From Omnitrophica WOR_2 bacterium GWF2_43_52 (lineage in GTDB: Bacteria > Omnitrophota > Gorgyraeia > Gygaellales > UBA12090), in assembly GCA_001805445.1 (NCBI GenBank), contig MHGF01000025.1, positions 338-64,337 on the forward strand: 64,000 nucleotides of DNA, in the 5' to 3' direction. The position numbers and the translations under genes are program-made. Shown here piece by piece: positions 6,685 through 61,706 of this stretch (positions are counted from its first letter, which is position 1; every line of letters starts with the position of its first letter). A model generated the notes under the pieces. It was not told where the DNA came from and did not search any database. It saw only the letters and a program-made list of their open reading frames with translations.

Positions 6685-9600
6685 ATGAAATCACATTTGC
6701 TGCATAAAACTATTTCCCTATGGGTATCTTTTTGCCTCATTTTTACCCAATTCGCATTTGCCCAAGGGGTAGCCGAACTTAATGTATCAGAGTACTTTAG
6801 GCAAATACATACTAATGTACCTTTTGGTGATAAGCTGAGGCCGCCTCAGCTTAGGTATTTCTCTTATGATACTGTCACAGATGATTATAGGATTATTTTA
6901 GATAAGGGGGCAATAAAAGAGATATCAGAAACCGACGCGGCAGAAAAAGCGAAAACACTTTTAAGTTACTTTCTGATAGGGGTAACCCTCCCCAATGATA
7001 CATTCTGGGTCAACCTGAGGCCCGATGCTCCGGATACTATCATAGACTTTGAATTAGAGAAAACCGATATCGGGAGGATTCTTCTGGAAGCCGACCTGCA
7101 ACTCAAGAAAGATACGGCTCAATGCACCTCACCTCAAACGCCAGATGGTAAGCTCTATTGGGATAAGCTCTATCAGAAGGCAGGTGAGCTCTTTGGCTCT
7201 GAGAATATTACCATTCCTACCTTAACCCGTCCGTGGATAGTACCAGGGGAGATAATCGTAAGAGAAACAGATAATTCCGCCTACATTTACAAGGCAAGCC
7301 TCAAGGTATTGTTAGAAGAAGATTACCTCAAAAGCTCTCAGCTTTCAGCTGTCAGCGTTCAGCAGTATAATTTTAAAGACGAACGGCTAAAAGAGTTGAA
7401 TGAATACTCCACACAGCTTATCAGAGAACTTATTATTCCAAAGCTGACCAGAGAGGTTAATACTTCCCAAAGGTATGCCGCCTTGCGGCAGGTATTCTTT
7501 TCATTAGTGCTTTCTCGATGGTTTAAGGAAAGATTCCGGGGAAAGCAGGGCGCCTATGCGAAGCTAATTGACAGTAAGAATTTAACTAACCTTATTTCGC
7601 AAGAGCAGTGGTCAAAAAATACCTATTTTAATGAATATAAGGAATCATTTCAGCATGGCGAATATAATATAAAGGAAGGTGTAGCCACTCCTTATGGGCA
7701 AACGATACGGAGTTATGTGAGCGGAGGAATTGAATTGACAGGCGCAGCCAGCCCTTTAAATAGTAATAGCTTTAGGGCTGGAGAGGGCCAAAAAATTACT
7801 AACACAATGCTTACTCTGGCAGGAAATGGAAAAAATCCAAGCCTGCAATTTCCTGCGGTCACATCTTCGCCTTTAGGAAAGCCTGAAGAATATAACAATA
7901 AAACAAACAATATAATTAAAGAGATACGTGATGAGGCTTATAAGGTTCACAGTGGCCTCAAAACTATAATAGAAGCATTAAGGCTTAAAATTACTACAGA
8001 GGATAAAGCACATCAAGACATTGAAGCGGCATTGGATAATCTATCAAGTTGGCCGGGTATCTTGCCTGAAAGTACCGATATTAAGGCTATGGCTAAGGAA
8101 ATAGCGAAAGCATTAAGAATATTGAATAAATATTATCTTAGAGATTTAAAAGGGATACTTGAAAAAAGTGGTTTTGAGGAGCAGTTCTCTGCCATGATAC
8201 TGCGTATGGAAAAAATTATTCCCTTAAAAGAGCAGATTCCCGAAGCGCTTGATAACTTTATGGTTAAGTATAAAAGTAGTATTAACCAAGAGCAATTCCA
8301 AAAAGTAGAAGAACTGCGCCTCAAGGAAAGGCAAGAGTTAGAGAATAAGTACGATGATTTTATCCGTTTATGCGCGTATATGGAGGACCTTGTATCGCAG
8401 CTACGAGAACATGCACAGGAACCTGCGAAAGATTCGCTTTATTTTGATTTGGATGAGTGGCTTTCTTTGGAGTTTAGGGCGCAAATAGAAATGATTGAAA
8501 TAGTGGCTGTGGAAGCTGTGAAGGAAATCCATGGTAAGTTTCAGGAAAAAGTAAATGGAATGGAGCGGCAAAGGGAGGAGTTGGAAAATGATATTAAAAA
8601 TATTCACGACAAAATGAGCGCGGGTGTTTTAGAGCTTATTAATAGGTATAACGATTTAGCGCTGCCTTCATTTATGCCAGCGGGTGATGCCGCCGTTGTA
8701 AGCGAAGATGCGTTCAGCCTATTATTTTTAGAAAACAAAGATTTCAACCACTTGACGCAATTTCAATTTCTTTTGCTTTTTGCAAGTTATGCCTTGGGAA
8801 ATTACGAAATTACAAGGGATAAGAATATACAAAAAGCGTTTAAGGAGAAATCTTTTGCTGAAGGGTTAATTACATTATATAAGAGCGTTTATGATCTAGA
8901 TGAAAGGACAAAGAGCTTTGCTAAAGAGCCTTATACTCCAAATTATAATAAAGCTCTTAATCGTATTCTTATTGAAATGCAGAAAAGAAGTGAAAACTTA
9001 GAGAATAAAATCAGCGGTAATTTGGAATATGCCGTTACTAATGATATGCCTTTTGTGAGATTGCCATTTAGCTTAAGACAAGATAAAGATAATGATTTTA
9101 TAAGGAGCAATCTGCCTGAAGCGATAAGCAGGCTTGATAATTATTCCAAAGAGCTTGTAGCAGGATATGGTAAGTCAAGAGATAACAGTATGAGAAATCA
9201 TTTATTTTTATTAAACGTAATAGCTGTCAGCGCGAAGGTTGAGATGGAGTTGTTGATGAGTGAGATTAACGGCAATGCTGAAGCTGCGTCTCCCTTGAGG
9301 CAAGAGAATCAGGAGCAAGATGAGTTAGAAAGGATTAAGAAAGAGTTTCTTCCGCCTCTTGGCGCAGGCAGGCTTACTTTTAAAGATGCAGCAAATAAAA
9401 TTGTTCATGAAATTAGCCAAGTCATAATGGAAAAGATCAATTCTACTGATGAGAACGCAGCATCAAAATTATATAGGGAGAAGCCGTCACCTTACAGTAG
9501 CCTCAAAACGTACCTAGAGGCTTTAGGCTTTACTATTAATGAAAAAGTGGACATGCAGAAGCTGCAAAACGAGATAGAAGCTCTTATCGGGGTAATAAAG

Positions 9601-10407
9601 GATTACGGCTTTGCAGCTAAGCTGGCGGATGAGATTAAAGCTTTGGACACACTTAGTAATAGATTGATTTCACAAGGCGAACAGTTTGCTGAGGAGCTGA
9701 GTCAGTTAAAGGTGACGCCTGCATATTTGGGAAGCCTTATAAAAGAGAGGCCTGTCGCTCTTTATTATCAATTTGCTGAGCTGGTCAAGTTAAATGATCA
9801 AAGCTATCCTGATAATTTTTCTTTGATTCTAGTCCCGTTGCCTCATGACGAGGGTAGTTTTTTAATTCAATTGCAAACACCGCAGCGCAGTATTGTAAAT
9901 ATAAATGTTTATAAAAATGGTGCTATTAAAGTTTCGCGCAATGATATTTTAAACAATTTAGACGTGAGGGTTTTAGCCATGAATATTGCAGAGGCTTTGC
10001 AAAAAGGCGTTGCTTCTTCTGGGATTCAAGGCCAGCCGCAAGGGGATATTGGAGGTATTGACTTTCGTGCGATGAATATATTGACGCAGCCAATGGGAAA
10101 CCTTTCCGGGTTGGATTTTAGTTTACCTGTGTTGAGTAGGGCAACGTTGGAAGACTTTGATATGGAGAAAGAATTAGAGCAGATTAGGAATATGGTAAAA
10201 GGCGGGATAATTCCCTCTGGCCAAAGAGTGAAGGAGTATGTAGCGGCCTGTTTTCAAAAAGGGCAAATGAAGGAAAAGGAGGATGAATTGATGTTTTGTT
10301 TGCTGGAAATCTGCATGTTGCAAGAGGAGCAAGTAGTAGAAAGCTCGGCAGCATTGAGAGAATCAATAGTTATCGTAGATACAGGAAGATACGTTTTAAA
10401 AAAGTAA
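6685..10407 (+). CDS. Large secreted, mostly alpha-helical protein of unknown function (1240 aa)
   Basis: A long ORF with a clear signal peptide and RBS context. No motif I recognise. Confidence 0.6.
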   Translation: MKSHLLHKTISLWVSFCLIFTQFAFAQGVAELNVSEYFRQIHTNVPFGDKLRPPQLRYFSYDTVTDDYRIILDKGAIKEISETDAAEKAKTLLSYFLIGVTLPNDTFWVNLRPDAPDTIIDFELEKTDIGRILLEADLQLKKDTAQCTSPQTPDGKLYWDKLYQKAGELFGSENITIPTLTRPWIVPGEIIVRETDNSAYIYKASLKVLLEEDYLKSSQLSAVSVQQYNFKDERLKELNEYSTQLIRELIIPKLTREVNTSQRYAALRQVFFSLVLSRWFKERFRGKQGAYAKLIDSKNLTNLISQEQWSKNTYFNEYKESFQHGEYNIKEGVATPYGQTIRSYVSGGIELTGAASPLNSNSFRAGEGQKITNTMLTLAGNGKNPSLQFPAVTSSPLGKPEEYNNKTNNIIKEIRDEAYKVHSGLKTIIEALRLKITTEDKAHQDIEAALDNLSSWPGILPESTDIKAMAKEIAKALRILNKYYLRDLKGILEKSGFEEQFSAMILRMEKIIPLKEQIPEALDNFMVKYKSSINQEQFQKVEELRLKERQELENKYDDFIRLCAYMEDLVSQLREHAQEPAKDSLYFDLDEWLSLEFRAQIEMIEIVAVEAVKEIHGKFQEKVNGMERQREELENDIKNIHDKMSAGVLELINRYNDLALPSFMPAGDAAVVSEDAFSLLFLENKDFNHLTQFQFLLLFASYALGNYEITRDKNIQKAFKEKSFAEGLITLYKSVYDLDERTKSFAKEPYTPNYNKALNRILIEMQKRSENLENKISGNLEYAVTNDMPFVRLPFSLRQDKDNDFIRSNLPEAISRLDNYSKELVAGYGKSRDNSMRNHLFLLNVIAVSAKVEMELLMSEINGNAEAASPLRQENQEQDELERIKKEFLPPLGAGRLTFKDAANKIVHEISQVIMEKINSTDENAASKLYREKPSPYSSLKTYLEALGFTINEKVDMQKLQNEIEALIGVIKDYGFAAKLADEIKALDTLSNRLISQGEQFAEELSQLKVTPAYLGSLIKERPVALYYQFAELVKLNDQSYPDNFSLILVPLPHDEGSFLIQLQTPQRSIVNINVYKNGAIKVSRNDILNNLDVRVLAMNIAEALQKGVASSGIQGQPQGDIGGIDFRAMNILTQPMGNLSGLDFSLPVLSRATLEDFDMEKELEQIRNMVKGGIIPSGQRVKEYVAACFQKGQMKEKEDELMFCLLEICMLQEEQVVESSAALRESIVIVDTGRYVLKK

Positions 10408-25328: not shown

Positions 25329-25497
25329 CGCGCCGGGAATATGGAGAGTAACCGGCCAGTTATCAGTGGCCAAAGGAAATGGGTACTGTCCCCGCCTGCG
25401 GCGGGGCCACCCATTTCCCCCGTTTAGCGACCGATTACTATGGAGATAATTTTCTGCTTGCAAAGGGGGATGTTTTAGGTTACAATACACCTCTCTT

Positions 25498-26430
25498 ATG
25501 GTTAAAAACTATATCATTGGCATAGACTTAGGCGCGACGAACATAAAAATCGGGTTAATCAGAAAAAGGCGGATAGTTTTGCGCGCTGTTGTGCCTACAG
25601 CTACTTTTGGTATAAAGGAAAATCTTATCGCCGGCCTTTCTAACGCGGCAAGCGGCCTTTTCTTGGAAGCGGATATCACTAAAAATAATGTGGCTGGTAT
25701 TGGTATCGGTGTTCCCGGGCCTGTTGATTTTTCTAGAGGTGTAGTCCATTTTTTCCCCAATATAAAAGGCTGGTGTAATGTTGCCCTAAAATCGATTATG
25801 CAAAAAAAGACGCATTTACCGGTAGTGATTGATAATGATGCCAATCTGATGAGTTTAGCGGAAACTCGTATCGGCGCGGCAATAGGGTTAAAGAATGTTA
25901 TTGGCATTACCCTTGGCACAGGGGTAGGGGGAGGGATAATCATTAACGGAGAGCTTTATCGCGGCAGTAGCTTTTGTGCCGGTGAGGCCGGCCATATTCC
26001 TCTTAATGAGGCTGGCCCGAAATGTAACTGTGGTGGCCGCGCCTGTATCGAGCGCTATGTCGGGAATAGATATATCTTAAGGAATGTCAGAAAAACCTTT
26101 GGTAAAGGTATTAATTTGGAAGCTCTAAGCCGTTTAGCCCATCAGGGGAATGCCAAAGCTATTGGCATATGGAATGGTGTTGCCTGCCACTTGGGGGTGG
26201 GGCTTTCCGGAATAATCAATTTTCTTAATCCTGACGCGGTAGTTATTGGCGGCGGGGTTTCTAATGCCGGCAAGTTTATTTTTGATAAGGCTAGGGAAGT
26301 CATAAAGGAAAGATCCATGCCTACCCAGGCAAAAACAGTTAAGATCCTTAAGGCAAAATTAGGCAATGACGCTGGTATGATAGGCGCGGCTTTATTGGTT
26401 GAAGAAACATTGGTAAAAAATGAAAAGTAA
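25498..26430 (+). CDS. ROK-family sugar kinase (glucokinase-like)
   Basis: 'IGIDLGATN' and a ROK zinc motif 'CNCGGRAC'. Confidence 0.75.
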   Translation: MVKNYIIGIDLGATNIKIGLIRKRRIVLRAVVPTATFGIKENLIAGLSNAASGLFLEADITKNNVAGIGIGVPGPVDFSRGVVHFFPNIKGWCNVALKSIMQKKTHLPVVIDNDANLMSLAETRIGAAIGLKNVIGITLGTGVGGGIIINGELYRGSSFCAGEAGHIPLNEAGPKCNCGGRACIERYVGNRYILRNVRKTFGKGINLEALSRLAHQGNAKAIGIWNGVACHLGVGLSGIINFLNPDAVVIGGGVSNAGKFIFDKAREVIKERSMPTQAKTVKILKAKLGNDAGMIGAALLVEETLVKNEK

Positions 26431-28711
26431 GCCTTCAATACTGTTTTTAGCTCTCCTGATTTCATTATCTGGGTATTCTTTCGCTTTCGCGCAGGAAGAT
26501 TTAAAAATAGGGGAAAATGTTCAGCCGTCAGATACTCGTGATGCCTCGTCAGGGCTTTTAACTGCCGCTCAGGAGGAAGGAGATAAGCGTACGCCTGTTA
26601 AGGCACTTTCAGGGGATTCCGAAAATACCCAGGAAAAACAGCCGATAATTATTAATGCCGATACAATTGAATACTCAAAAGAAAAAAATGTGGTTACTTT
26701 AGAAGGCAATGTGAAGCTTATCAAGGAGAATTCGGTTTTAACCTGCGATAAGGCGACCGTTAATACCGCCACCAACGAAGCCCATGCCCAAGGCCATGTC
26801 ATTTTAGAAGACGGCCAAGGCGTGATTAAGGCAAACTCTTGCGATTACAATTTTAAAACAAAAACCGGCCAGGCATTTGATGCTACCATAGCATATCATC
26901 CTTATTTTGGCTCAGGGAAAATCGTGCGTAAGGTATCCGAAAACGAAATAGAGATTAAAAACGGCTATTTTACCACCTGCGATAAAGAGCAGTCTCCCCA
27001 TTATAGGATACAAAGCCGCTTGTTGAGGTTATTCCCTAACGATAAGGTCACTGCCAAGGCCATGACGATGCGGGTAGCCAATACTCCCATATTCTATATG
27101 CCGAAGTTTACCCAGAACTTAAAGGATGACCGGATGCATGTTGAGGTTAGCCCTGGTAAAAATAAGGACTGGGGCTTGTTTCTTTTAACCGCATGGAGAT
27201 ATGACCTTCTGCCTGATTCCGGTGGCAGGGTGCACCTTGATTATCGGGAAAAGAAAGACTTTGCCTGGGGTATTGATAATTATTATGATACGAAAAAAGC
27301 GGGCAAAGGGTATGTCAAGACTTATTATATGAACGAGCGGACTATTGGCAGAAAGCATCTGTATTCTTATCCGGTTAACCTTAAGGCAACAAGCGATACT
27401 CAGCGTTATCGTATTCAATGGCGCCATAAATGGGATATAGATAAGAATACCTATTGGCTGGCGGAGTATCATAAACTAAGCGATACAAAATTCATCAAAG
27501 ATTATTTTTTCCGTGAGTATGAAAAGGATAAGCAGCCTCTTTCGTACCTGGTGTATAACCGTATCCTTTCAAATCAATCTTCTACATTTAGCATCCTAAC
27601 TCAAAAACGGACTAATCGTATTTTTTCAGAAACAGAAAAGTTGCCGGAGATAAAATTAGATAACGCCACTACCCAGATTTTGGAGTCTCCTTTTTACGTA
27701 AGTAGTAATGTTTCGTATGTAAGTTTTAACGAAAAAATAGCGACCACGCCAGAGAATGCTGGGCGTTGGGATGAAGATGATGCTAGTCAGAGAGAGGATC
27801 TGTATAAGCGATTCTCATTACCTTTCAAATTAGCTTTTCTTGAGCTGAATCCTTTCGCAGGTAGCCGCGAAACGTATTTTCGCCGTATCTCTGGTAGGGA
27901 TGTAGGTGTTTTTAGGGAAGTCTGGGATAGCGGAATTAGCCTTACCACAAGATTTTACAGGATATTTGATGTCGATACTGATATTGTGGGCATGGAAATT
28001 AGCAAGTTGCGGCATATTGTCAGCCCTAATATTAATTACTCGTATATTCATCCCCCGACAGTTTCTTCAACAAAACTTTTACAGTTTGATGGTATAGATG
28101 CCATAGGTGAGTCAAATCAAATAGCATTCTCATTAGAAAATAAACTGCAAACCAAGCGGCGCAATAAAACTGTTGATTTCTTGCGCTTAATCGTGGATTC
28201 AAATTATTTTTTTAATGTTGAAGGGCGTAATCGGAATTGGAGCGATACTATTAATTTTGACCTGGAGATGCTTCCCTATGATTGGATGAGGTTTGAATCA
28301 GATGCTACTTATAACCATGAGAAGGATTATTTTTCTTATGCTAATTTTGACGCGACGGCATCCGGCAAGGGGCTTTCTGTTGGCGGCGGCTATCGTTATG
28401 AAAGAAAGTCCAGCAGCCAGATGACCGGAGAAATCATCTGCAATTTAATCAAAGGCTGGTCTTTTAAAGTGTATGAAAGGCTGCAATTTAAAGGAAACAG
28501 CCTTTTAAAGGAACAGACCTATAGTATTTCAAAAGAGCTCCATTGCTGGATTCTTGATGTTAATTATAATGTGGTGCGCGAGCGCGGGGAAACGATATGG
28601 TTTGCCTTAAGGCTCAAGGCTTTCCCGGAGATGTCGATTGATTATAACCAGAATTACCATGACCCTAAGCCGATGTCGCAGGGATATGCTGAGGGCAAGG
28701 CGGCTGATTAG
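26420..28711 (+). CDS. lptD: LPS-assembly outer-membrane protein LptD (OstA-like N-terminal domain plus beta-barrel)
   Basis: Signal peptide, an OstA/LptA-like jellyroll and a long beta-strand-rich C-terminal region. Confidence 0.65.
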   Translation: MKSKPSILFLALLISLSGYSFAFAQEDLKIGENVQPSDTRDASSGLLTAAQEEGDKRTPVKALSGDSENTQEKQPIIINADTIEYSKEKNVVTLEGNVKLIKENSVLTCDKATVNTATNEAHAQGHVILEDGQGVIKANSCDYNFKTKTGQAFDATIAYHPYFGSGKIVRKVSENEIEIKNGYFTTCDKEQSPHYRIQSRLLRLFPNDKVTAKAMTMRVANTPIFYMPKFTQNLKDDRMHVEVSPGKNKDWGLFLLTAWRYDLLPDSGGRVHLDYREKKDFAWGIDNYYDTKKAGKGYVKTYYMNERTIGRKHLYSYPVNLKATSDTQRYRIQWRHKWDIDKNTYWLAEYHKLSDTKFIKDYFFREYEKDKQPLSYLVYNRILSNQSSTFSILTQKRTNRIFSETEKLPEIKLDNATTQILESPFYVSSNVSYVSFNEKIATTPENAGRWDEDDASQREDLYKRFSLPFKLAFLELNPFAGSRETYFRRISGRDVGVFREVWDSGISLTTRFYRIFDVDTDIVGMEISKLRHIVSPNINYSYIHPPTVSSTKLLQFDGIDAIGESNQIAFSLENKLQTKRRNKTVDFLRLIVDSNYFFNVEGRNRNWSDTINFDLEMLPYDWMRFESDATYNHEKDYFSYANFDATASGKGLSVGGGYRYERKSSSQMTGEIICNLIKGWSFKVYERLQFKGNSLLKEQTYSISKELHCWILDVNYNVVRERGETIWFALRLKAFPEMSIDYNQNYHDPKPMSQGYAEGKAAD

Positions 28712-28932
28712 TTATTGCCGGGAAACCTTATTTTCAGTGTTTAAAATTGATTTTTCCAGTGTAAACTAATGCATTGTTACATAAGTCCTTTGATAGATAT
28801 GATGGTAAAAATGGGTCCTGTCCAGGTTATGTTTTCGCCCCGCCTACGGCGGGGCTCAAACACAACCCGGCCACCAATTTTTACAGCTATTTTAAGAAAC
28901 TTATGTAACAATGTACTAATCAAGGAAAGAAA

Positions 28933-30246
28933 ATGAATATCGCAATCATAGGAACTGGGTATGTAGGATTAGTCACAGGCGCTTGTTTCGCGGATTTAGG
29001 CAATACCGTTATATGCGTGGATAACAATAAGGATAAAATCGCTTCGCTTAAAAAGCTGATAATGCCTATTTATGAGCCGGGGCTTGATGAATTGGTCAGG
29101 CGCAACGTTAAGGAAAAACGGCTTTGTTTTAGCGCCGATATCAAGGAAGCCCTCAGGAAGTCAAAAATAATTTTTATCGCCGTTGGCACCCCTCCATTAG
29201 ATAACGGCGATGCCGATCTTACCGGGGTAGAAAACGTCGCCAAAGCCATCGCGAAAAACTTAAACGGATATAAACTGATAGTGGAAAAATCGACGGTGCC
29301 GGTAGAAACAGGTTTTTGGGTTGAGCATACCATTAAGGTCAATCTCCCGAACGCGAAAAAAGGGAAAATCAGCTTTGATGTCGCTTCAAATCCCGAATTT
29401 TTGCGGGAAGGCCAGGCTATCAACGATTTTATGCATCCTGACAGGATTGTTATTGGCGTGGAGTCGCAGGCTGCCAGGGAGCTTTTATGTGATTTGTATA
29501 AGCCGCTTAAAACACATCTTGTTGTTACCGATATAAAATCAGCCGAAATTATCAAGCACGCGTCTAATTCCTTTCTCGCTACTAAAATTTCGTTTATCAA
29601 TGCCATAGCGCAGATATGTGAGCGCGTGGGAGCGGATGTCGTTAAGGTCGCTGACGGTATGGGGATGGATAAAAGAATTGGCAGGGCATTTTTAGACGCG
29701 GGAATAGGCTATGGAGGCTCCTGTTTTCCTAAAGACCTGGATGCTTTTATCACCATTGCCAGGAAAAACGGCTATGATTTTGAATTGCTTAAGGCAGTGC
29801 GGGATATTAATGAGTATCAGAAAAAAGATATCGTTAAAAAAATTAAGGACGCATTGTGGATACTCAAAGATAAGCGTATTTGCCTTTTGGGGCTTTCTTT
29901 TAAACCCAATACCGATGACCTGCGAAGCGCTCCTTCGTTGGCTATTATTGAGTCACTTCAGTCAGAAGGCGCGAAAATAAGGGTTTTTGATCCCCAGAGT
30001 ATGGAAAAGGCCAAAGAAATAGTTCAGGGAGTTACCTTTTGTAAAGATGCCTATCAGGCGGCAAAAGGCGCGGATTGCGTTGTTATTGTAACCGAATGGA
30101 ATGAGTTTAAGGAGCTTGATGTAGCACGGCTTAAAAAAATTATGCATCAGCCCCTTATTATCGACGGTAGAAACATCTATGAACCGCAGGTAATGAAGAA
30201 AAACGGTTTCCGCTATATCGGGATGGGGAGAGGAAAGAGGCAATGA
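28933..30246 (+). CDS. ugd: UDP-glucose 6-dehydrogenase
   Basis: 'IAIIGTGYVGLV' Rossmann fold and a catalytic 'GGSCFPKD' motif. Confidence 0.85.
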   Translation: MNIAIIGTGYVGLVTGACFADLGNTVICVDNNKDKIASLKKLIMPIYEPGLDELVRRNVKEKRLCFSADIKEALRKSKIIFIAVGTPPLDNGDADLTGVENVAKAIAKNLNGYKLIVEKSTVPVETGFWVEHTIKVNLPNAKKGKISFDVASNPEFLREGQAINDFMHPDRIVIGVESQAARELLCDLYKPLKTHLVVTDIKSAEIIKHASNSFLATKISFINAIAQICERVGADVVKVADGMGMDKRIGRAFLDAGIGYGGSCFPKDLDAFITIARKNGYDFELLKAVRDINEYQKKDIVKKIKDALWILKDKRICLLGLSFKPNTDDLRSAPSLAIIESLQSEGAKIRVFDPQSMEKAKEIVQGVTFCKDAYQAAKGADCVVIVTEWNEFKELDVARLKKIMHQPLIIDGRNIYEPQVMKKNGFRYIGMGRGKRQ

Positions 30247-30689
30247 TCCAGGGTGTAAAGGTAAAACAACTAAAAGTGTTTCCCGACGGCCGGGGAAAAC
30301 TGATGGAAATCTTGCGTTGTGACGACGAAATATTCCAGAAGTTCGGGCAGGTGTATTTTACTACCGCGTATCCGGGAGTTGCCAAGGCCTGGCACTATCA
30401 TAAGAAACAGGATGACCACTTCTGTTGTATCAAAGGGAAGATGCGTTTGGCACTGTATGACGCGCGGAAAACATCAAAAACCTATCGGAAGATTAATGAG
30501 TTTGAGTTAAGCCTGGAGAATCCCCTTTTAGTGAGAATCCCAAAGAAGGTCTACCATGGGTTTAAGTGTATCAGTGATGAGGAAGCCGTTGTCATTAATG
30601 TGCCTACTGTCGCCTATAACCGGGATAATCCCGATGAATACAGGATAGATGCCTTTGATAATGATATCCCGTATGACTGGAGAAAGTAA
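30243..30689 (+). CDS. rfbC: dTDP-4-dehydrorhamnose 3,5-epimerase-like cupin (RmlC family)
   Basis: RmlC-like motifs ('WHYHK', 'CIKGK', 'YHGF'). Confidence 0.65.
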   Translation: MIQGVKVKQLKVFPDGRGKLMEILRCDDEIFQKFGQVYFTTAYPGVAKAWHYHKKQDDHFCCIKGKMRLALYDARKTSKTYRKINEFELSLENPLLVRIPKKVYHGFKCISDEEAVVINVPTVAYNRDNPDEYRIDAFDNDIPYDWRK

Positions 30690-31429
30690 TGCCGAAAGCT
30701 GATAGCCTTAAAGGGATTATTTTATGCGGAGGGCTGGGAAAGCGCCTCGAGCCTTTAACCCGGATTACCAACAAACATTTGCTTCCTGTGTATGATAAAC
30801 CGATGGTTTATTATACCATTCAAACCCTGGTTGAGGCGGGGATACAGGATATTATGATTGTCACCGGAGGCAATAACGCGGGAGATTTCCTGAGGTTGAT
30901 CGGTAACGGCCAGGAATTCGGCTTACGCCATATCAATTATACCTATCAAAGAGGGGAAGGCGGTATTGCCGAGGCATTAGGGTTGACCGAGCATTTTGCC
31001 GATGGCTCAAAGATTGTGGTTGTCTTGGGAGATAACCTTATCGGTGGGTCAATCAAAAAATACGTAGACAAGTTTAGGAGGCAGGAGAAGGGTGCCCGTG
31101 TCCTTGTAAAGAAGGTGCAAGACCCCGAGCGCTTCGGCGTAGCCGAAATTAAAAACGGGAAAATAGTATCCATAGAAGAGAAACCGAAGAAGCCGAAATC
31201 CTGCTACGTCATTACCGGTATCTATATGTATGATGAAAAAGTGTTTGATATTATCAAAACCTTGAAACCCTCAGGCCGCGGAGAATTTGAAATAACCGAC
31301 GTGAATAACGCCTACTTGAAAAAGAACGAACTCTCGTATGATATTTTAAATTGCTGGTGGACAGATTGCGGCCTCCCTGAGACACTCTATCGCGCCGCTA
31401 CCTTAGTGCGAAAGAAATGTAAGGAATAA
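30689..31429 (+). CDS. rfbA: Glucose-1-phosphate thymidylyltransferase, short form (sugar nucleotidyltransferase)
   Basis: 'GIILCGGLGKRLEPLT' nucleotidyltransferase motif. Confidence 0.7.
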   Translation: MPKADSLKGIILCGGLGKRLEPLTRITNKHLLPVYDKPMVYYTIQTLVEAGIQDIMIVTGGNNAGDFLRLIGNGQEFGLRHINYTYQRGEGGIAEALGLTEHFADGSKIVVVLGDNLIGGSIKKYVDKFRRQEKGARVLVKKVQDPERFGVAEIKNGKIVSIEEKPKKPKSCYVITGIYMYDEKVFDIIKTLKPSGRGEFEITDVNNAYLKKNELSYDILNCWWTDCGLPETLYRAATLVRKKCKE

Positions 31430-31432
31430 TCC

Positions 31433-32389
31433 ATGAGATTACTTGTGACAGGTGGAGCCGGTTTTATCGGCTCCAATTTTATTAGGCATATCCTTAAGAA
31501 ATATCCGGGCTATAGCGTTACTAATCTGGATAAGCTTACCTATGCCGGTAACCTGGAAAATCTTTCGGATATCGAGAAGAATAAGCGCTACCGGTTTGTC
31601 AAAGGGGATATCGCCAATGGCGCGTTAGTCAGTAAAGTGCTTTCCGAATGCGACTGCCTTGTGAATTTTGCCGCGGCAACACATGTGGACCGTTCAATTT
31701 CTGACGCGTCGGATTTTATCAAGGCCAATATTGCCGGCACGTATGTATTGCTGGAAGCGGCCCGCAAGCACAGGGTAAGGAAGTTTTTGCACATATCAAC
31801 CGATGAAGTCTATGGAAGCATCGAAAAAGGGAGGTCTCAAGAGACAGACGCCCTTTTTCCTAACAGCCCTTATTCGGCAAGTAAAGCGTCAGCCGACCAC
31901 CTGGCGCGGGCGTATCATGTTACCTATAACGTACCTGTTTTGATTACCCGCTCATCGAACAATTTCGGGCCTTATCAGTATCCTGAGAAAGTTATCCCGC
32001 TTTTTATCACGCATCTGCTTGAAGGCAAAAAAGTGCCGCTCTACGGAGATGGGATGAATAAGAGGGATTGGATCTTTGTTGTGGATAATTGCCGGGCTAT
32101 CGATACGGTGCTGCATAAGGGGAAAATCGGAGAAGTGTATAATATCGGCGTAGGTAATGAAATTCCCAATATACTGCTGACTAGGAAAATCCTTCAGTCC
32201 ATGGGTAAGCCTGAGAGTTGCATCAGCCATGTCCAGGATAGGCCTGGCCATGACCGGCGGTACGCTTTGAATGTCAGGAAGCTAAAAGCATTAGGCTGGT
32301 ATCCTGAATTCTCATTTGAGAAAGCCCTTGCCTTGACGATTGCCTGGTATACCAATAACCAAAAGTGGTGGAAAAGAATAAAAAAATAG
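31433..32389 (+). CDS. rfbB: dTDP-glucose 4,6-dehydratase
   Basis: 'VTGGAGFIGSNF' and a YxxxK catalytic motif. Confidence 0.85.
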   Translation: MRLLVTGGAGFIGSNFIRHILKKYPGYSVTNLDKLTYAGNLENLSDIEKNKRYRFVKGDIANGALVSKVLSECDCLVNFAAATHVDRSISDASDFIKANIAGTYVLLEAARKHRVRKFLHISTDEVYGSIEKGRSQETDALFPNSPYSASKASADHLARAYHVTYNVPVLITRSSNNFGPYQYPEKVIPLFITHLLEGKKVPLYGDGMNKRDWIFVVDNCRAIDTVLHKGKIGEVYNIGVGNEIPNILLTRKILQSMGKPESCISHVQDRPGHDRRYALNVRKLKALGWYPEFSFEKALALTIAWYTNNQKWWKRIKK

Positions 32390-33252
32390 TCTTTATAACC
32401 GGCGCGGAAGGCATGTTAGGTAGGGAACTCGCAGCCATATTCGCGAAGCATTATAAGGTTATCGCGCCTGCCCGTAAAGAATGTGATATTACAGACGCTA
32501 AGAAAGTAACGGCTCTTTTTCTGCGGTACAGGCCGTGGCTTGCGATACACGCGGCAGGTTTTACCGATGTTGACGGCTGCGAAGAGAATGTAAGAAAAGC
32601 GTACGCGGTCAATGCCCAAGGCACCTGTATCGTGAGTAAGGCGGCCCGCACAAGCGGTACAGTGCTTATCTATGTGAGCACGGATTATGTCTTTAGCGGT
32701 GCCAAGCATGCTGCCTACCGGGAAACCGACAGGGTTCATCCCTTAAGTGTTTACGGCAGGACTAAATTAGAGGGAGAAGAGTTCGTAAGGAAGCTGTTAA
32801 AAAAACACATTATTATTCGTACTTCCTGGCTTTTTGGGACAGGCAGGGATAATTTTATCACGAATGTCATGGCATGGGCAAAAGAGAAAGAATGCTTTTC
32901 TATTGTTTGCGATAAGTACGCCTGTCCGACATATACCATTGACCTGGCAAAGGCACTGTATCTTATCGCAAAGCGCATTGATACCCATAAGCCCGGAGAT
33001 ACATTCTATGGCACCTATCATATTGCTAATTCCGGGTATTGCTCGTGGTTTGATTACGCCAACTATATCCTAAAGGTGGCCAAGGTAAAGAATGTCCGGC
33101 TTCTACCCGTTGCGATGGCACAGATGAAGTTTAAGGCCAAGCGCCCGGCGTTTTCCGTGTTGGATAGCACGAAATTTAACCGGGTGTTTGGATATAAGCT
33201 CAGGCCATGGCAAAAAGCAGTAAAGGAGTATATGCAATGTACATACCATTAG
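32365..33252 (+). CDS. rfbD: dTDP-4-dehydrorhamnose reductase
   Basis: RmlD-like short-chain dehydrogenase/reductase fold, in the rml cluster. Confidence 0.8.
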   Translation: MVEKNKKIVFITGAEGMLGRELAAIFAKHYKVIAPARKECDITDAKKVTALFLRYRPWLAIHAAGFTDVDGCEENVRKAYAVNAQGTCIVSKAARTSGTVLIYVSTDYVFSGAKHAAYRETDRVHPLSVYGRTKLEGEEFVRKLLKKHIIIRTSWLFGTGRDNFITNVMAWAKEKECFSIVCDKYACPTYTIDLAKALYLIAKRIDTHKPGDTFYGTYHIANSGYCSWFDYANYILKVAKVKNVRLLPVAMAQMKFKAKRPAFSVLDSTKFNRVFGYKLRPWQKAVKEYMQCTYH

Positions 33253-34523
33253 AGAAAAAAATAAAGAATAAAAGCGCTCAAGTTGCGGTGATAGGTTTGG
33301 GATATGTTGGATTACCTCTTGCGGTTGAGCTTGCAAAGGCGGGCTTTCACGTTACGGGAATTGATACCGATAGTGATAGAGTGCATAATGTCAAAAACGC
33401 AATTCCCTATATCCTGGATGTAGATAGTAAAGATGTAAAAAGATTAGTTAAAGAGGCTTCATTAGTAGCGACGACTGATTTTCGGCGCTTAGGCCATGTT
33501 GATGTTATTATTATCTGTGTCCCTACGCCGCTCAAGCGAAAATACCAGCCGAATATAAGCTATATTAAGCAGGCAGTTACCCAGATAAAACAGCATCTGC
33601 GCAAAGGGCAGTTAGTGATTTTAGAAAGTACGACGTATCCCGGGACAACGGATGAGGTTATCCTGCCGATGCTTGAGTCAACCGGTTTAAAATGCGGGAT
33701 AGACTTCTTTTTAGTCTTTTCTCCCGAAAGAATTGACCCGGGCAATGAAAAATTCCCCTTAAACAAAATCCCTAAGGTTGTCGGAGGGGTGACTCAGGAG
33801 TCCGCGCATTTATTCAAATTGTTGTATGAAAATATCATAGAGCGGGTCGTCACTGTCTCAAGCCCGCGCGCTGCCGAGACGGTAAAGCTTTTAGAGAATA
33901 CCTTCCGCCTTATCAATATCGGGTTAGTCAACGAACTCGCGATGCTCTGTCATACCATGAATATGGATGTCTGGGAAATAATTGACGCGGCAAAGACCAA
34001 GCCTTTCGGTTTTATGCCCTTTTATCCGGGGCCGGGCGTCGGCGGCCATTGCATTCCAAAAGACCCTTTATATTTATATTGGAAAGCAAAGCTCCACGGG
34101 TTTAAGTCGCGTTTTATAAAATTGGCCTCAGATTTAAACTCCTCGATGCCGGCGTATGTCGTGAACCGTTTACATGCCCTGAAGCCTTTACCGGGGGCAA
34201 AAATTTTGGTCTTAGGGGTAACCTACAAGAAAGATGTGAAAGACCTTCGTAAATCCCCGCCTTTAGAGATAATTGATTTGCTTAAGAAAAACAAGGCTGA
34301 TGTTTTTTATGCTGACCCGCTTATTCCTTACCTCAAATTTGGGCATTTTAATGTAAAGGCAACTCCTCTTACTTCCAAAGCCTTAAGCGCTATGGACTGC
34401 GCGGTAGTGGTTACTGACCACACCAGTTTTGACTATGATTTTATCCTCAAGCATTCCAAGCGTATCTTTGATACCCGTAACGCCTATAAGGGTAATAAGA
34501 GCGATAAGATCATTCGTCTGTAA
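33237..34523 (+). CDS. UDP-N-acetyl-D-mannosamine/glucosamine dehydrogenase-family NDP-sugar dehydrogenase (WecC/TviB-like)
   Basis: 'VIGLGYVGLPLA' and 'GGHCIPKD' motifs. The start was moved to the ATG at 33237, which follows an AAGGAG RBS; the ORF track start is 33207. Confidence 0.75.
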   Translation: MYIPLEKKIKNKSAQVAVIGLGYVGLPLAVELAKAGFHVTGIDTDSDRVHNVKNAIPYILDVDSKDVKRLVKEASLVATTDFRRLGHVDVIIICVPTPLKRKYQPNISYIKQAVTQIKQHLRKGQLVILESTTYPGTTDEVILPMLESTGLKCGIDFFLVFSPERIDPGNEKFPLNKIPKVVGGVTQESAHLFKLLYENIIERVVTVSSPRAAETVKLLENTFRLINIGLVNELAMLCHTMNMDVWEIIDAAKTKPFGFMPFYPGPGVGGHCIPKDPLYLYWKAKLHGFKSRFIKLASDLNSSMPAYVVNRLHALKPLPGAKILVLGVTYKKDVKDLRKSPPLEIIDLLKKNKADVFYADPLIPYLKFGHFNVKATPLTSKALSAMDCAVVVTDHTSFDYDFILKHSKRIFDTRNAYKGNKSDKIIRL

Positions 34524-34982
34524 ATCCTTGAGAAAATATTCATAGCATCTCTTTAGCATCGATGTAATTCTTCCCGCATGTTAGAGAGTGTCTTTGTACT
34601 CACACGCTCTCTTATCGTAAAGATTCCCGCAATAAAAGATAACCCAGAATAGTTTTATTATTACACTGTGATAAGAAATTTGGGTCACTGTGTAGTAGTG
34701 CTCCGTGACATAAATTCTTACTATCTGCAACACTTCACTTGCCAGCGGGGGTGGCAAGGTTGTGTTTGAGCCCCGCCGTAGGCGGGGCGAAAACATAACC
34801 TTGACAGGACCTCCGCCCTATATTCAAACATGATAGCGCAATGCCAAAATCTAATGTCACAGCGCAGCAGGATAATAGAGGTAATTTCATGATAATGTAA
34901 AAATATGTCATGATATGTAAATATTCTTCTTGACAATTGTGCTAACTATTATAAAATGTAACCTATGGTGTCAGAGGCTCTT

Positions 34983-35132
34983 ATGACTATTGATGACCTG
35001 GCGGGGTATTTAAAGGTTAAAAAGCGCACTATTTATGAGTGGCTTAAAAAGAAGAAGATTCCCGCTTCAAAAGTCATTGGGCAGTGGAGGTTCCGTCGGG
35101 AAAGAATAGATGCGTGGCTTGAGAATGAGTAG
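34983..35132 (+). CDS. Small HTH_17 (excisionase/AlpA-like) DNA-binding protein, 49 aa. It is below the ORF-track size cutoff.
   Basis: 'MTIDDLAGYLKVKKRTIYEWLKKKKIPASKVIGQWRFRRERIDAWL' matches the HTH_17 motif. A TTGACA-N17-TAAAAT promoter lies about 45 bp upstream. Confidence 0.6.
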   Translation: MTIDDLAGYLKVKKRTIYEWLKKKKIPASKVIGQWRFRRERIDAWLENE

Positions 35133-40899: not shown

Positions 40900-41069
40900 G
40901 TATTGTTAAAAAACCTTATTTTACACGAATTACCGCGAATTTTTAGCGAATTAACACGAATAAATTTGTGGAAATTAGTGTTTAAAATGGACTTTTTCAG
41001 TGTAAACTGAATAGGTGCTCTGGAAAAACAGGAGTTTTCTATCAGCAACCATTTAGGGAGGATAGCGGT

Positions 41070-49818: not shown

Positions 49819-50023
49819 CTATTCGTTAAGAATACGGAAATCTAGTGCGCTGTTACAAAAGTTATCAAACAGCGCACTAGGGGGTGTGGGGGAGATTGTC
49901 CACCACGCTTGGGGGGTGCTCAGCGATCCGCCGTAGGCGGAGAGCGCCGAAGCCCGCCGTAGGCGGGCTAGCGGAAGTGCGAAATCAATATTAAGAATTA
50001 ATTTGACAGAGCACTAGGCAACG

Positions 50024-55857: not shown

Positions 55858-56031
55858 CCCAGGAAAAGCGGCCGTCAAAATTATTATCCCGGATTTTACT
55901 CCGACGCCAGAAAGCCCCGCTATTTATAGCGGGGATGAATGGCTTTCTGGGTCGGAGTTCCGACCTCTGAAGGAGCGTCGGAACTATTCAAGAAAGAAGC
56001 CCCGTGATTTATCACGGGGAGTCTACACTGT

Positions 56032-60829: not shown

Positions 60830-60851
60830 TTAACTAAAGATATTGTGACTA

Positions 60852-60930
60852 CTGATAAAGGTAAACCCAGAGTAATCTGGGGGCGCAAAGCAATGGGGTC
60901 CTGATAAAGGATTGCCCGGCTGCCAAAGGG
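60852..60930 (+). ncRNA. Candidate c-di-GMP-I (GEMM) riboswitch aptamer
   Basis: 'AAAGGUAAACC-CAGA-GUAA-UCUGG-GGGCGCAAAGC...GGGGUCCUGAUAAAGG...GCCCGGCUGCC' compared with the Vc2/GEMM core 'GGCAAACC-stem-GNRA-stem-GGACGCAAAGCC...'. Confidence 0.55.
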
Positions 60931-61646: not shown

Positions 61647-61669
61647 AAATAAAAACTTTTTTGGAAAAA

Positions 61670-61706
61670 GACAAATGGCGATGGTATTTCCATCGCCATT
61701 TGTCTT
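61670..61706 (+). terminator. 15-bp stem hairpin after the pilin gene
   Basis: gacaaatggcgatgg tattt ccatcgccatttgtc. Confidence 0.5.

Follow-up and report, generated by a model that had tools for sequence, protein, structure and literature searches.

The stretch of DNA analysed here (hereafter the window) comprises 64,000 nucleotides from Omnitrophica WOR_2 bacterium GWF2_43_52 (contig MHGF01000025.1, positions 338 to 64,337 of the forward strand), and our subject is a pair of inverted repeats within it, e1 and e2, which bracket six nucleotide-sugar genes. We consider it likely that e1 and e2 are two near-identical long-form copies of a species-specific, intergenic family of palindromic hairpins, akin to repetitive extragenic palindromic (REP) sequences and miniature inverted-repeat transposable elements (MITEs), with short forms that we call h3 and h3', and that the pair does not delimit a mobile or invertible unit. 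This view is carried by the repeat family and the structure of its members, by their absence from those relatives whose DNA is readable, by conserved synteny, and by the fixed orientation of the locus, all of which are direct observations. The features concerned are the following, with coordinates in the window unless a contig is named.

28814 to 28875, plus strand: e1, a long-form hairpin repeat in the lptD/ugd spacer, laid out as GGTCCTGTCC AGGTTATGTTTTC GCCCCGCC TAC GGCGGGGC TCAAACACAACC CGGCCACC.
34750 to 34811, minus strand: e2, a long-form hairpin repeat inverted relative to e1, between the second dehydrogenase gene and the promoter of the helix-turn-helix (HTH)-SMC genes.
28805 to 28884, plus strand: the extended hairpin of e1, with copy-specific flanks GTAAAAATGGGT / ACCAATTTTTAC (12 nt, 92% complementary).
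28767 to 28918, no strand assigned: an imperfect palindrome of about 150 nt centred on e1, with outer arms at 28767-28786 and 28899-28918 (20 nt, 90%).
34744 to 34817, minus strand: the extended hairpin of e2, with a different copy-specific paired flank, GGCGG.GGT / ACC.CCGCT.
25347 to 25421, plus strand: the unit of h3, a short-form member in the GGDEF/ROK spacer, with its hairpin at 25375-25419 (GGAAATGGGTACTGTCCCCGCCTGCGGCGGGGCCACCCATTTCC).
7076 to 7150 of contig L041 (ERZ27254739:k141_2130082): h3', a paralogue of h3 in its native gidA (mnmG)/PAP2 spacer, at an unlinked locus.
28933 to 34523, plus strand: the six nucleotide-sugar genes (ugd-like, rmlC-like, rmlA-like, rmlB, rmlD and a second nucleoside diphosphate (NDP)-sugar dehydrogenase gene), given as context and lying outside the element.

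A repeat search of the window returns e1 and e2 as arms of 62 nt that are 95% complementary and have 5874 nt between them. Aligned with each other they agree at 59 of 62 positions, with a perfect stretch of 54 nt, and the near-identical 62-bp inverted repeats reported in a preliminary description of this DNA are thus confirmed, with its coordinates about 3 nt off. The 37-nt core GTTTTCGCCCCGCCTACGGCGGGGCTCAAACACAACC occurs exactly twice, once on each strand, where 100 shuffles give an expectation of zero. All three differences between the copies fall within two neighbouring base pairs of the outer stem, where a C-G pair is replaced by A-T and an A.C mismatch by A-T. The same description held the flanking sequences to be unrelated, and indeed their local alignment score lies inside the shuffle range, with no significant similarity; a TTATGT(A/C)A motif common to these flanks and the HTH promoter was not above shuffles either, and was discarded as evidence. 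Chance was also judged to account for an inverted match of 8 nt linking the area of the lptD stop with that of the ugd ribosome-binding site. As e1 and e2 are present and identical in independent JGI, ENA and NCBI assemblies, an assembly artefact is rejected as their source. Pfam and NCBIfam searches with the six enclosed open reading frames (ORFs) identify a Ugd-like NDP-sugar dehydrogenase, an RmlC-like cupin, an RmlA-like nucleotidyltransferase, RmlB, RmlD and a second NDP-sugar dehydrogenase, in agreement with the nucleotide-sugar content first ascribed to the segment; the cupin is small and the nucleotidyltransferase short, and both score below the NCBIfam cut-offs.

Each of e1 and e2 is by itself an imperfect 62-nt palindrome built around the hairpin GCCCCGCC-TAC-GGCGGGGC, so that the GC hairpin previously noted in each copy is present in both. 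Outward from its 8-bp GC tip and triloop, the structure passes through a 2x2 loop, a 13-bp middle stem containing A.C or G.U positions, and an asymmetric internal loop (CCTGT opposite CC) to a basal stem. RNA folds of the two copies have z-scores of -4 to -8 against shuffles, and the better-folding strand, which has G.U in place of the A.C mismatches, is the minus strand at e1 and the plus strand at e2; on the plus-strand transcript, it is e2 that gives the strongest hairpin (-53.4 kcal/mol). The whole element is imperfectly palindromic and its termini read GGTCCTGTC / GCCACC, so that it has terminal inverted repeats as MITEs do. In every copy the basal stem is paired, even though the flank sequences differ, and the paired stem runs on into flanks that the copies do not share, namely GTAAAAAT/ATTTTTAC at e1 and GGCGG/CCGCT at e2. 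The extended hairpin of e1 has an A-tract upstream and a T-tract downstream, the T-run AATTTTTAC lying about 2 nt after the basal stem, and by these features it resembles a bidirectional terminator. The palindromic flanks fit two explanations, insertion at the centre of existing palindromes or outward growth by intramolecular template switching. Template switching is a known origin of clustered, pairing-improving changes in quasipalindromes, and it could account for the differences between e1 and e2 without selection.

The family extends beyond this pair. The short-form member h3 lies 3.4 kb upstream of e1 and has a conserved 28-nt left extension (25347-25374); it has a unit of about 85 nt in common with h3', and the two sequences diverge on both sides of it. 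The termini of h3 match those of e1 (AAATGGGT(A/C)CTGTCC ... GGCCACC(C/A)ATTT) and its middle stem is missing, while a basal stem, the asymmetric CCTGT/CC loop and the GC tip CCCCGCC-T(A/G)C-GGCGGGG are found in all four copies; the long form is thus the short form with a 13-bp middle stem added, and the sequence of that middle stem is found solely in e1 and e2. An nhmmer profile built from h3 and h3' matches e1 with E = 5e-4 in a 246-kb search space. All four copies stand between co-directional genes, 3' of a stop codon, and like REP sequences they are short imperfect palindromes in extragenic space. A covariance model of the family was given up, as MAFFT misplaced the left arm of the short form and four sequences offer little covariation power. 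As far as it has been sampled, the family is low in copy number and specific to this lineage.

Comparison with relatives rests on five GTDB genomes (L016, L018, L019, L021 and L023) and one ENA contig (P0003, gene calls only), in all of which the LptD homologue is 66-76% identical by tblastn; the ENA contig, at 72%, is the closest relative with a long contig. In all six the order ABC, GGDEF, GGDEF, ROK, LptD, ugd, rmlC, rmlA, rmlB, rmlD, second dehydrogenase, HTH, SMC is kept, except that the second dehydrogenase gene is missing in L016 and L021. What differs is the spacers. The distance from lptD to ugd is 4-86 nt in the relatives, as opposed to 221 nt in the window, and the whole of this 221-nt spacer is missing from them; the closest homologue of all (L028, LptD 79%, on a 2.4-kb contig) displays only the lptD-ugd junction, and there ugd starts about 10 nt after the lptD stop. 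Likewise, the spacer between the second dehydrogenase gene and the HTH gene is about 460 nt in the window (with the HTH start placed at 34983 by comparison with L019) versus about 120-200 nt in L023 and L019. Nothing resembling e turned up when about 110 kb of the relatives' loci, where their DNA is readable, was searched by BLAST, nhmmer and motif. The cassette genes are 53-83% identical to those of the relatives at the amino-acid level and the flanking genes 52-87%, with GC contents of 43-46% and 41-45%, respectively. Given the conserved gene order, the flank-like identity and GC content of the cassette, and the absence of the repeats from the relatives, we conclude that the genes are ancestral at this site and that the repeats were added to its spacers later; by this sequence comparison, the six genes are to be regarded as an old, vertically inherited part of a row of lptD, nucleotide-sugar and SMC genes. 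With regard to the signs by which a mobile cassette or genomic island is known, no presence, absence or replacement was seen among the six relatives beyond the sixth gene missing in two, and the composition is not atypical. The comparison of synteny that had been proposed to decide the matter thus found the cassette neither absent nor replaced.

Nor does the locus vary in its arrangement. Among independent JGI, ENA and NCBI assemblies, 13 contigs span e1 with both flanks and nine span e2; all are collinear with the window, and no second orientation of the 5.9-kb segment was seen among them. The e1 and h3 spacers of a strain that shares about 98.6% identity along a 7-kb contig (DPCB01000079.1) are identical to those described here. 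Furthermore, Pfam searches of ORFs outside about 48.6-52.8 kb, together with precomputed Pfam assignments of called genes, detected no recombinase, integrase or transposase domain in the 64-kb window.

The ends of some short-read contigs coincide with these hairpins. Among the Logan k=31 contigs of sample SRR6488068, one (L039) corresponds to window 25392-28801, beginning inside h3 and ending 4 nt before the extended hairpin of e1, and another (L010) corresponds to 28886-34750, resuming 2 nt after that hairpin and ending at the first base of e2. These ends lie further out than a collapse of the 54-nt common core predicts, and could reflect either a hairpin-related loss of coverage or an allele without the 84-nt e1 hairpin. 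In addition, the flank of h3' towards gidA and that of h3 towards ROK are found connected in a contig of 3.5x coverage (NODE_315 of ERZ5996431; L003/L033), as a comparison of L003:6415-6480 with window 25347-25412 and L041:7076-7150 shows; either this contig is chimeric through misassembly, or it is a true product of recombination between the two paralogous hairpins. In practical terms, the family breaks or chimerises short-read assemblies at spacers, with one contig joining two paralogous copies and k=31 contigs ending at hairpins.

Three further features bear on the affinities of the family.

49928 to 49969, minus strand: two tandem small hairpins (49928-49940 and 49951-49969) in the his-operon spacer, with only the tip core CCGCC-GTA-GGCGG in common with the family.
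88 to 774 of L029 (contig DNSN01000005.1), about 1 kb upstream of window position 1: Y1_Tnp gene 1, similar to REP-associated tyrosine transposase (RAYT) genes and reaching the NCBIfam REP_Tyr_transpos cut-off; perfect 23-nt inverted repeats AAATAGTGTCGTTTCTGCGTAAC flank the gene.
3695 to 4360 of L003, equal to 4355 to 5020 of L041: RAYT-like Y1_Tnp gene 2, flanked by palindromes of the CCTTAATTCCAAACCCGCATTGGAATT type.

The two Y1-transposase genes are 36% identical to each other, and the repeats that flank them are not in the window and bear no resemblance to e or h3. As for the tip, the 13-mer CCGCC-(TAC/GTA/TGC/GCA)-GGCGG occurs six times in the window, including once inside alaS and twice in the his-operon spacer; with those loops it is absent from the relatives' loci, where a looser search for CCGCC-N3-4-GGCGG found one hairpin with a different loop. 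The his-spacer hairpins may be distant relatives of the e/h3 family.

Several known systems are close to what we describe. The REP sequences and bacterial interspersed mosaic elements (BIMEs) of Enterobacteria and Pseudomonas, and the RAYT-mobilised REPINs (Bertels and Rainey 2011, PMC3116915; PMC3337134), are like the e family in being extragenic, GC-rich, imperfectly palindromic, lineage-specific repeats within a genome that form stem-loops between co-directional genes, in a host that has RAYT-like genes. A REPIN consists of two REP palindromes in inverted orientation with a short spacer between them (PMC3116915, PMC3337134), whereas the e unit is one continuous hairpin of 39 or 62 nt with an asymmetric internal loop and not a doublet of two REPs; unlike REP, moreover, the e family has its GTAG in the loop and not at the 5' end, is documented in four copies, and stands beside neither RAYT-like gene. 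Bacterial MITEs and long palindromic repeats (Correia elements, ERIC/IRU, RUP, Rickettsia palindromic elements) are similarly short, non-coding and intergenic, with inverted-repeat termini and long and short forms. In ERIC and Correia elements, the long and short forms differ by internal segments. The e family differs from them in being smaller (a core of 39-62 nt), in that what separates its long from its short form was gained or lost symmetrically, on the two sides of the stem, and in that the e1 flanks GTAAAAAT/ATTTTTAC and the e2 flanks GGCGG/CCGCT are inverted complements and not direct repeats; neither the window nor the fetched loci yielded an autonomous insertion sequence (IS) whose ends match. 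Rho-independent terminators are comparable insofar as e and h3 are GC-rich stem-loops at operon ends, with a T-run at e1 and with e2 occupying the place of a terminator in L019, yet the stems here are far longer and interrupted by internal loops, near-identical copies stand at several loci, and a U-tract is lacking at e2, h3 and h3'. The invertible segments governed by Hin, Gin and Fim switches, and the polysaccharide promoter inversions of Bacteroides, likewise place inverted repeats around DNA related to surface polysaccharides; here, in contrast, the repeats enclose a 5.9-kb ancestral operon and not a promoter, members of the family also occur elsewhere as single copies, one orientation is seen in all assemblies, and no invertase was found in the window ORFs scanned.

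Database searches point to a family confined to this lineage. Rfam 15 gave no match to e1 or e2 at either of two thresholds, the best e1 hits being at chance level and only a cyclic di-GMP-I riboswitch elsewhere in the window passing; a degenerate pattern of the e core had no match in the GTDB representatives, which cover other species only (best LptD 76%); a scan of a metagenome subset that did not include the source samples gave five matches, all of them unrelated perfect hairpins; two scans of viral contigs gave one chance match in one and none in the other; and plasmid and phage BLAST gave no match. In a limited literature search, repeats of this sort were not seen described for Omnitrophota. 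The family is a new one of a known kind of element, and only its nested long and short architecture and its palindromic flanks are unusual. The alternative raised in the preliminary description, that e1 and e2 are copies of a REP-like element, is broadly right: they have intergenic palindromic relatives in h3 and h3', one of them unlinked. The RAYT-like genes, however, are not flanked by e or h3, and the family is probably not a canonical REP or REPIN.

As to how the family came to its present position, the copies would have arisen after the lineage split from its nearest sequenced relatives and would now sit in the enlarged spacers of a vertically inherited gene row, with the opposite orientation of e1 and e2 around the six genes being presumably incidental. 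Their probable role, in single-stranded DNA or in RNA, is that of strong stem-loops at the borders of operons, where they may form or stabilise the 3' ends of transcripts and insulate transcription units, and e1 would in this manner split the ancestrally coupled lptD-ugd junction. REP elements are known to end or stabilise transcripts and to insulate transcription units. At the place equivalent to that of e2, L019 carries a canonical intrinsic terminator, GGGACGG...CCGTCCC followed by TTTTTGTTTT; taken with the strength of the plus-strand hairpin at e2, the A- and T-tracts of e1 and its separation of lptD from ugd, this favours a stem-loop role at transcript ends or as an insulator.

A number of observations weigh against the view that e1 and e2 belong to a REP/MITE-like family with such a role. 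No U-tract follows the hairpin in e2, h3 or h3', and these are therefore not classical intrinsic terminators; a terminator consensus scan called none of the copies, and the sites found in the promoter and terminator scan were no more numerous than in shuffles. Orientation relative to transcription is mixed, with three copies one way and one the other. There is no target-site duplication for e1 or e2 and no autonomous partner was found, and neither RAYT-like gene of the organism is flanked by e or h3 sequence. The four members come from about 95 kb of sampled sequence of the species, three of them clustering within 9.5 kb, and a dispersed, mobile family is not proven by four copies so placed. 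Last, what assemblies show is the prevailing arrangement, and a rare subpopulation with the segment inverted could have escaped notice; nothing points to one.

The clustering just mentioned is also the starting point of the best-surviving alternative, in which the hairpins are not selfish repeats but non-mobile, functional sites that act in cis at the RNA or DNA level, such as stem-loops bound by a protein or terminators of an unusual kind, and whose likeness is maintained by selection or gene conversion so as to co-ordinate or insulate envelope-related transcription units. Three of the four copies lie within those 9.5 kb around lptD and the sugar genes, the three differences between e1 and e2, confined to two neighbouring base pairs, keep or improve pairing, every copy has a paired basal stem despite differing flanks, the asymmetric CCTGT/CC loop is kept in all four, and e2 stands at a terminator position. 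We nonetheless hold this explanation to be unlikely, as the copies are missing from every readable relative despite the same genes being present there, h3' lies in the unrelated gidA/PAP2 spacer, orientation relative to transcription is inconsistent and no Rfam family matches; moreover, the correction of quasipalindromes by template switching can yield changes that look compensatory without selection.

Rather unlikely, in our estimation, is that the hairpins constitute an undescribed non-autonomous module which nests at the centres of palindromes, or which grows palindromes outward by template switching. A GC tip of 13-19 nt, CCGCC-GTA-GGCGG, is present at the apex of three stems (h3, the middle stem of e, and the his-spacer hairpins), the long form is the short form with a symmetric insertion in both arms, paired stems continue into unrelated flanks with e1 at the centre of a 150-nt palindrome, and no RAYT or IS partner is evident. 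If true, this would be a previously undescribed kind of hairpin module.

We regard as quite improbable that e1 and e2 are canonical REP or REPIN sequences mobilised by one of the organism's RAYT genes. The species does have two Y1-transposase genes, of which the one located about 1 kb before the window begins reaches 81.7 bits with NCBIfam REP_Tyr_transpos (cut-off 80), and the elements are extragenic GC-rich hairpins with a GTAG tetranucleotide on one strand, though this is located in the loop. The flanking repeats of the two RAYT-like genes, however, are particular to each gene (AAATAGTGTCGTTTCTGCGTAAC and CCTTAATTCCAAACCCGCATTGGAATT), neither of them being in the window or like e/h3, and the arms of e are not themselves palindromic REPs, such that e is no REP doublet.

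That e1 and e2 serve as sites of site-specific or RecA-dependent recombination (54 bp of perfect identity being enough for RecA), flipping or moving the six genes and so varying the surface polysaccharide, is very improbable. In favour of such a mobilisable or invertible cassette, which the preliminary description had raised as a possibility, one might cite the inverted 62-bp repeats with their 54-nt perfect core that bracket exactly these genes, the excisionase-family HTH gene just downstream, and the k=31 contig ends at the element edges. Yet the HTH gene, promoter included, also accompanies SMC in relatives that lack the repeats, members of the family are found beyond the cassette, an inversion would set the operon against the uniform plus orientation of the region, and the six-relative synteny and orientation, the absence of the repeats wherever DNA is readable, the single orientation of the 13 and nine junction-crossing contigs, the lack of any invertase, integrase or transposase found in the portion of the 64 kb that was searched, and the flank-like GC content and divergence all stand against it.

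The result removes a tempting reading, namely that of phase-variable or mobile surface-polysaccharide genes in a candidate phylum, and it documents in its place a lineage-specific, interspersed hairpin repeat family in Omnitrophota. Given that e1 splits an ancestrally coupled lptD-ugd junction, the transcription of envelope genes may have been rewired. The long and short forms, with their copy-specific palindromic flanks, furthermore provide a small case in which the origin and growth of palindromic repeats can be studied.

A groundwater metagenome has yielded a JGI contig, Ga0208373_1000173, to which the window is identical, and the window sequence recurs in many JGI, ENA, Logan and NCBI metagenome-assembled genome (MAG) assemblies. 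The GTDB-representative relatives by LptD are all Candidatus Omnitrophota (WOR_2) and at most 76% identical, and we therefore take the source, from these sequence matches, to be an uncultured groundwater Omnitrophota species that is itself outside the GTDB representatives searched. The window has the gene content of a housekeeping chromosome, with miaB-like, miaA, hflX, clpB, hrcA-grpE-dnaK-dnaJ, accD, GGDEF, ROK and lptD genes followed by the sugar genes, smc, recA, htrA, recX, alaS, his genes, secDF and pilin genes, almost all on the plus strand.

Directly upstream of smc, the excisionase-family HTH gene (34965-35132) is MADS1-like by NCBIfam at 74.5 bits, below cut-off. Its promoter (34880-34964) consists of TTGACA-16-TAAAAT after repeated ATGTAA(A/G) motifs and is kept in L016, L019, L021 and L023, and HTH-SMC looks like an autoregulated unit. 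In relatives, tandem repeats of the GAACATTAGA(A/G)CAATA type and a ACAGCGCACT palindrome lie between the HTH gene and smc (L016:16940-17250, L021:16920-17100), neither of which is in the window.

The left part of the lptD/ugd spacer (28712-28770) and the recA/htrA spacer (40900-41010) have two blocks in common, one of which is AAACCTTATTTT; a 32-nt block at 28736-28767 (CAGTGTTTAAAATTGATTTTTCCAGTGTAAAC) is 91% identical to 40977-41008 (E = 1e-6). One possibility is that the blocks represent a promoter or regulatory module that two envelope-related operons have in common upstream of them.

A second hairpin family, CCCCG(CT/TG)ATTTAT(AG/CA)CGGGG, is found in the secDF/helicase spacer at 55915-55934 and 56000-56019 (= L024:3155-3259); in the MAG contig DMEX01000067.1 (L027:2900-3300), the upstream gene context changes just before the second of these hairpins, which is another repeat-associated breakpoint. 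The riboswitch that passes in Rfam lies at 60850-60927 (55.3 bits, gathering score 35), upstream of pilin-like (N_methyl), PilM/PilO and secretin genes, and a hairpin with a perfect 17-bp stem follows the first pilin gene (61668-61706). For a 1240-aa ORF at 6685-10407, likewise called as a gene when the MAG was annotated, Pfam gave no match at E <= 1e-5. Within the interior of lptD (27353-27519), several independent contigs or scaffolds (L004, L005, L008 and L009) begin, end or have a gap at about 27470-27519, which suggests a strain-variable or hard-to-assemble stretch.

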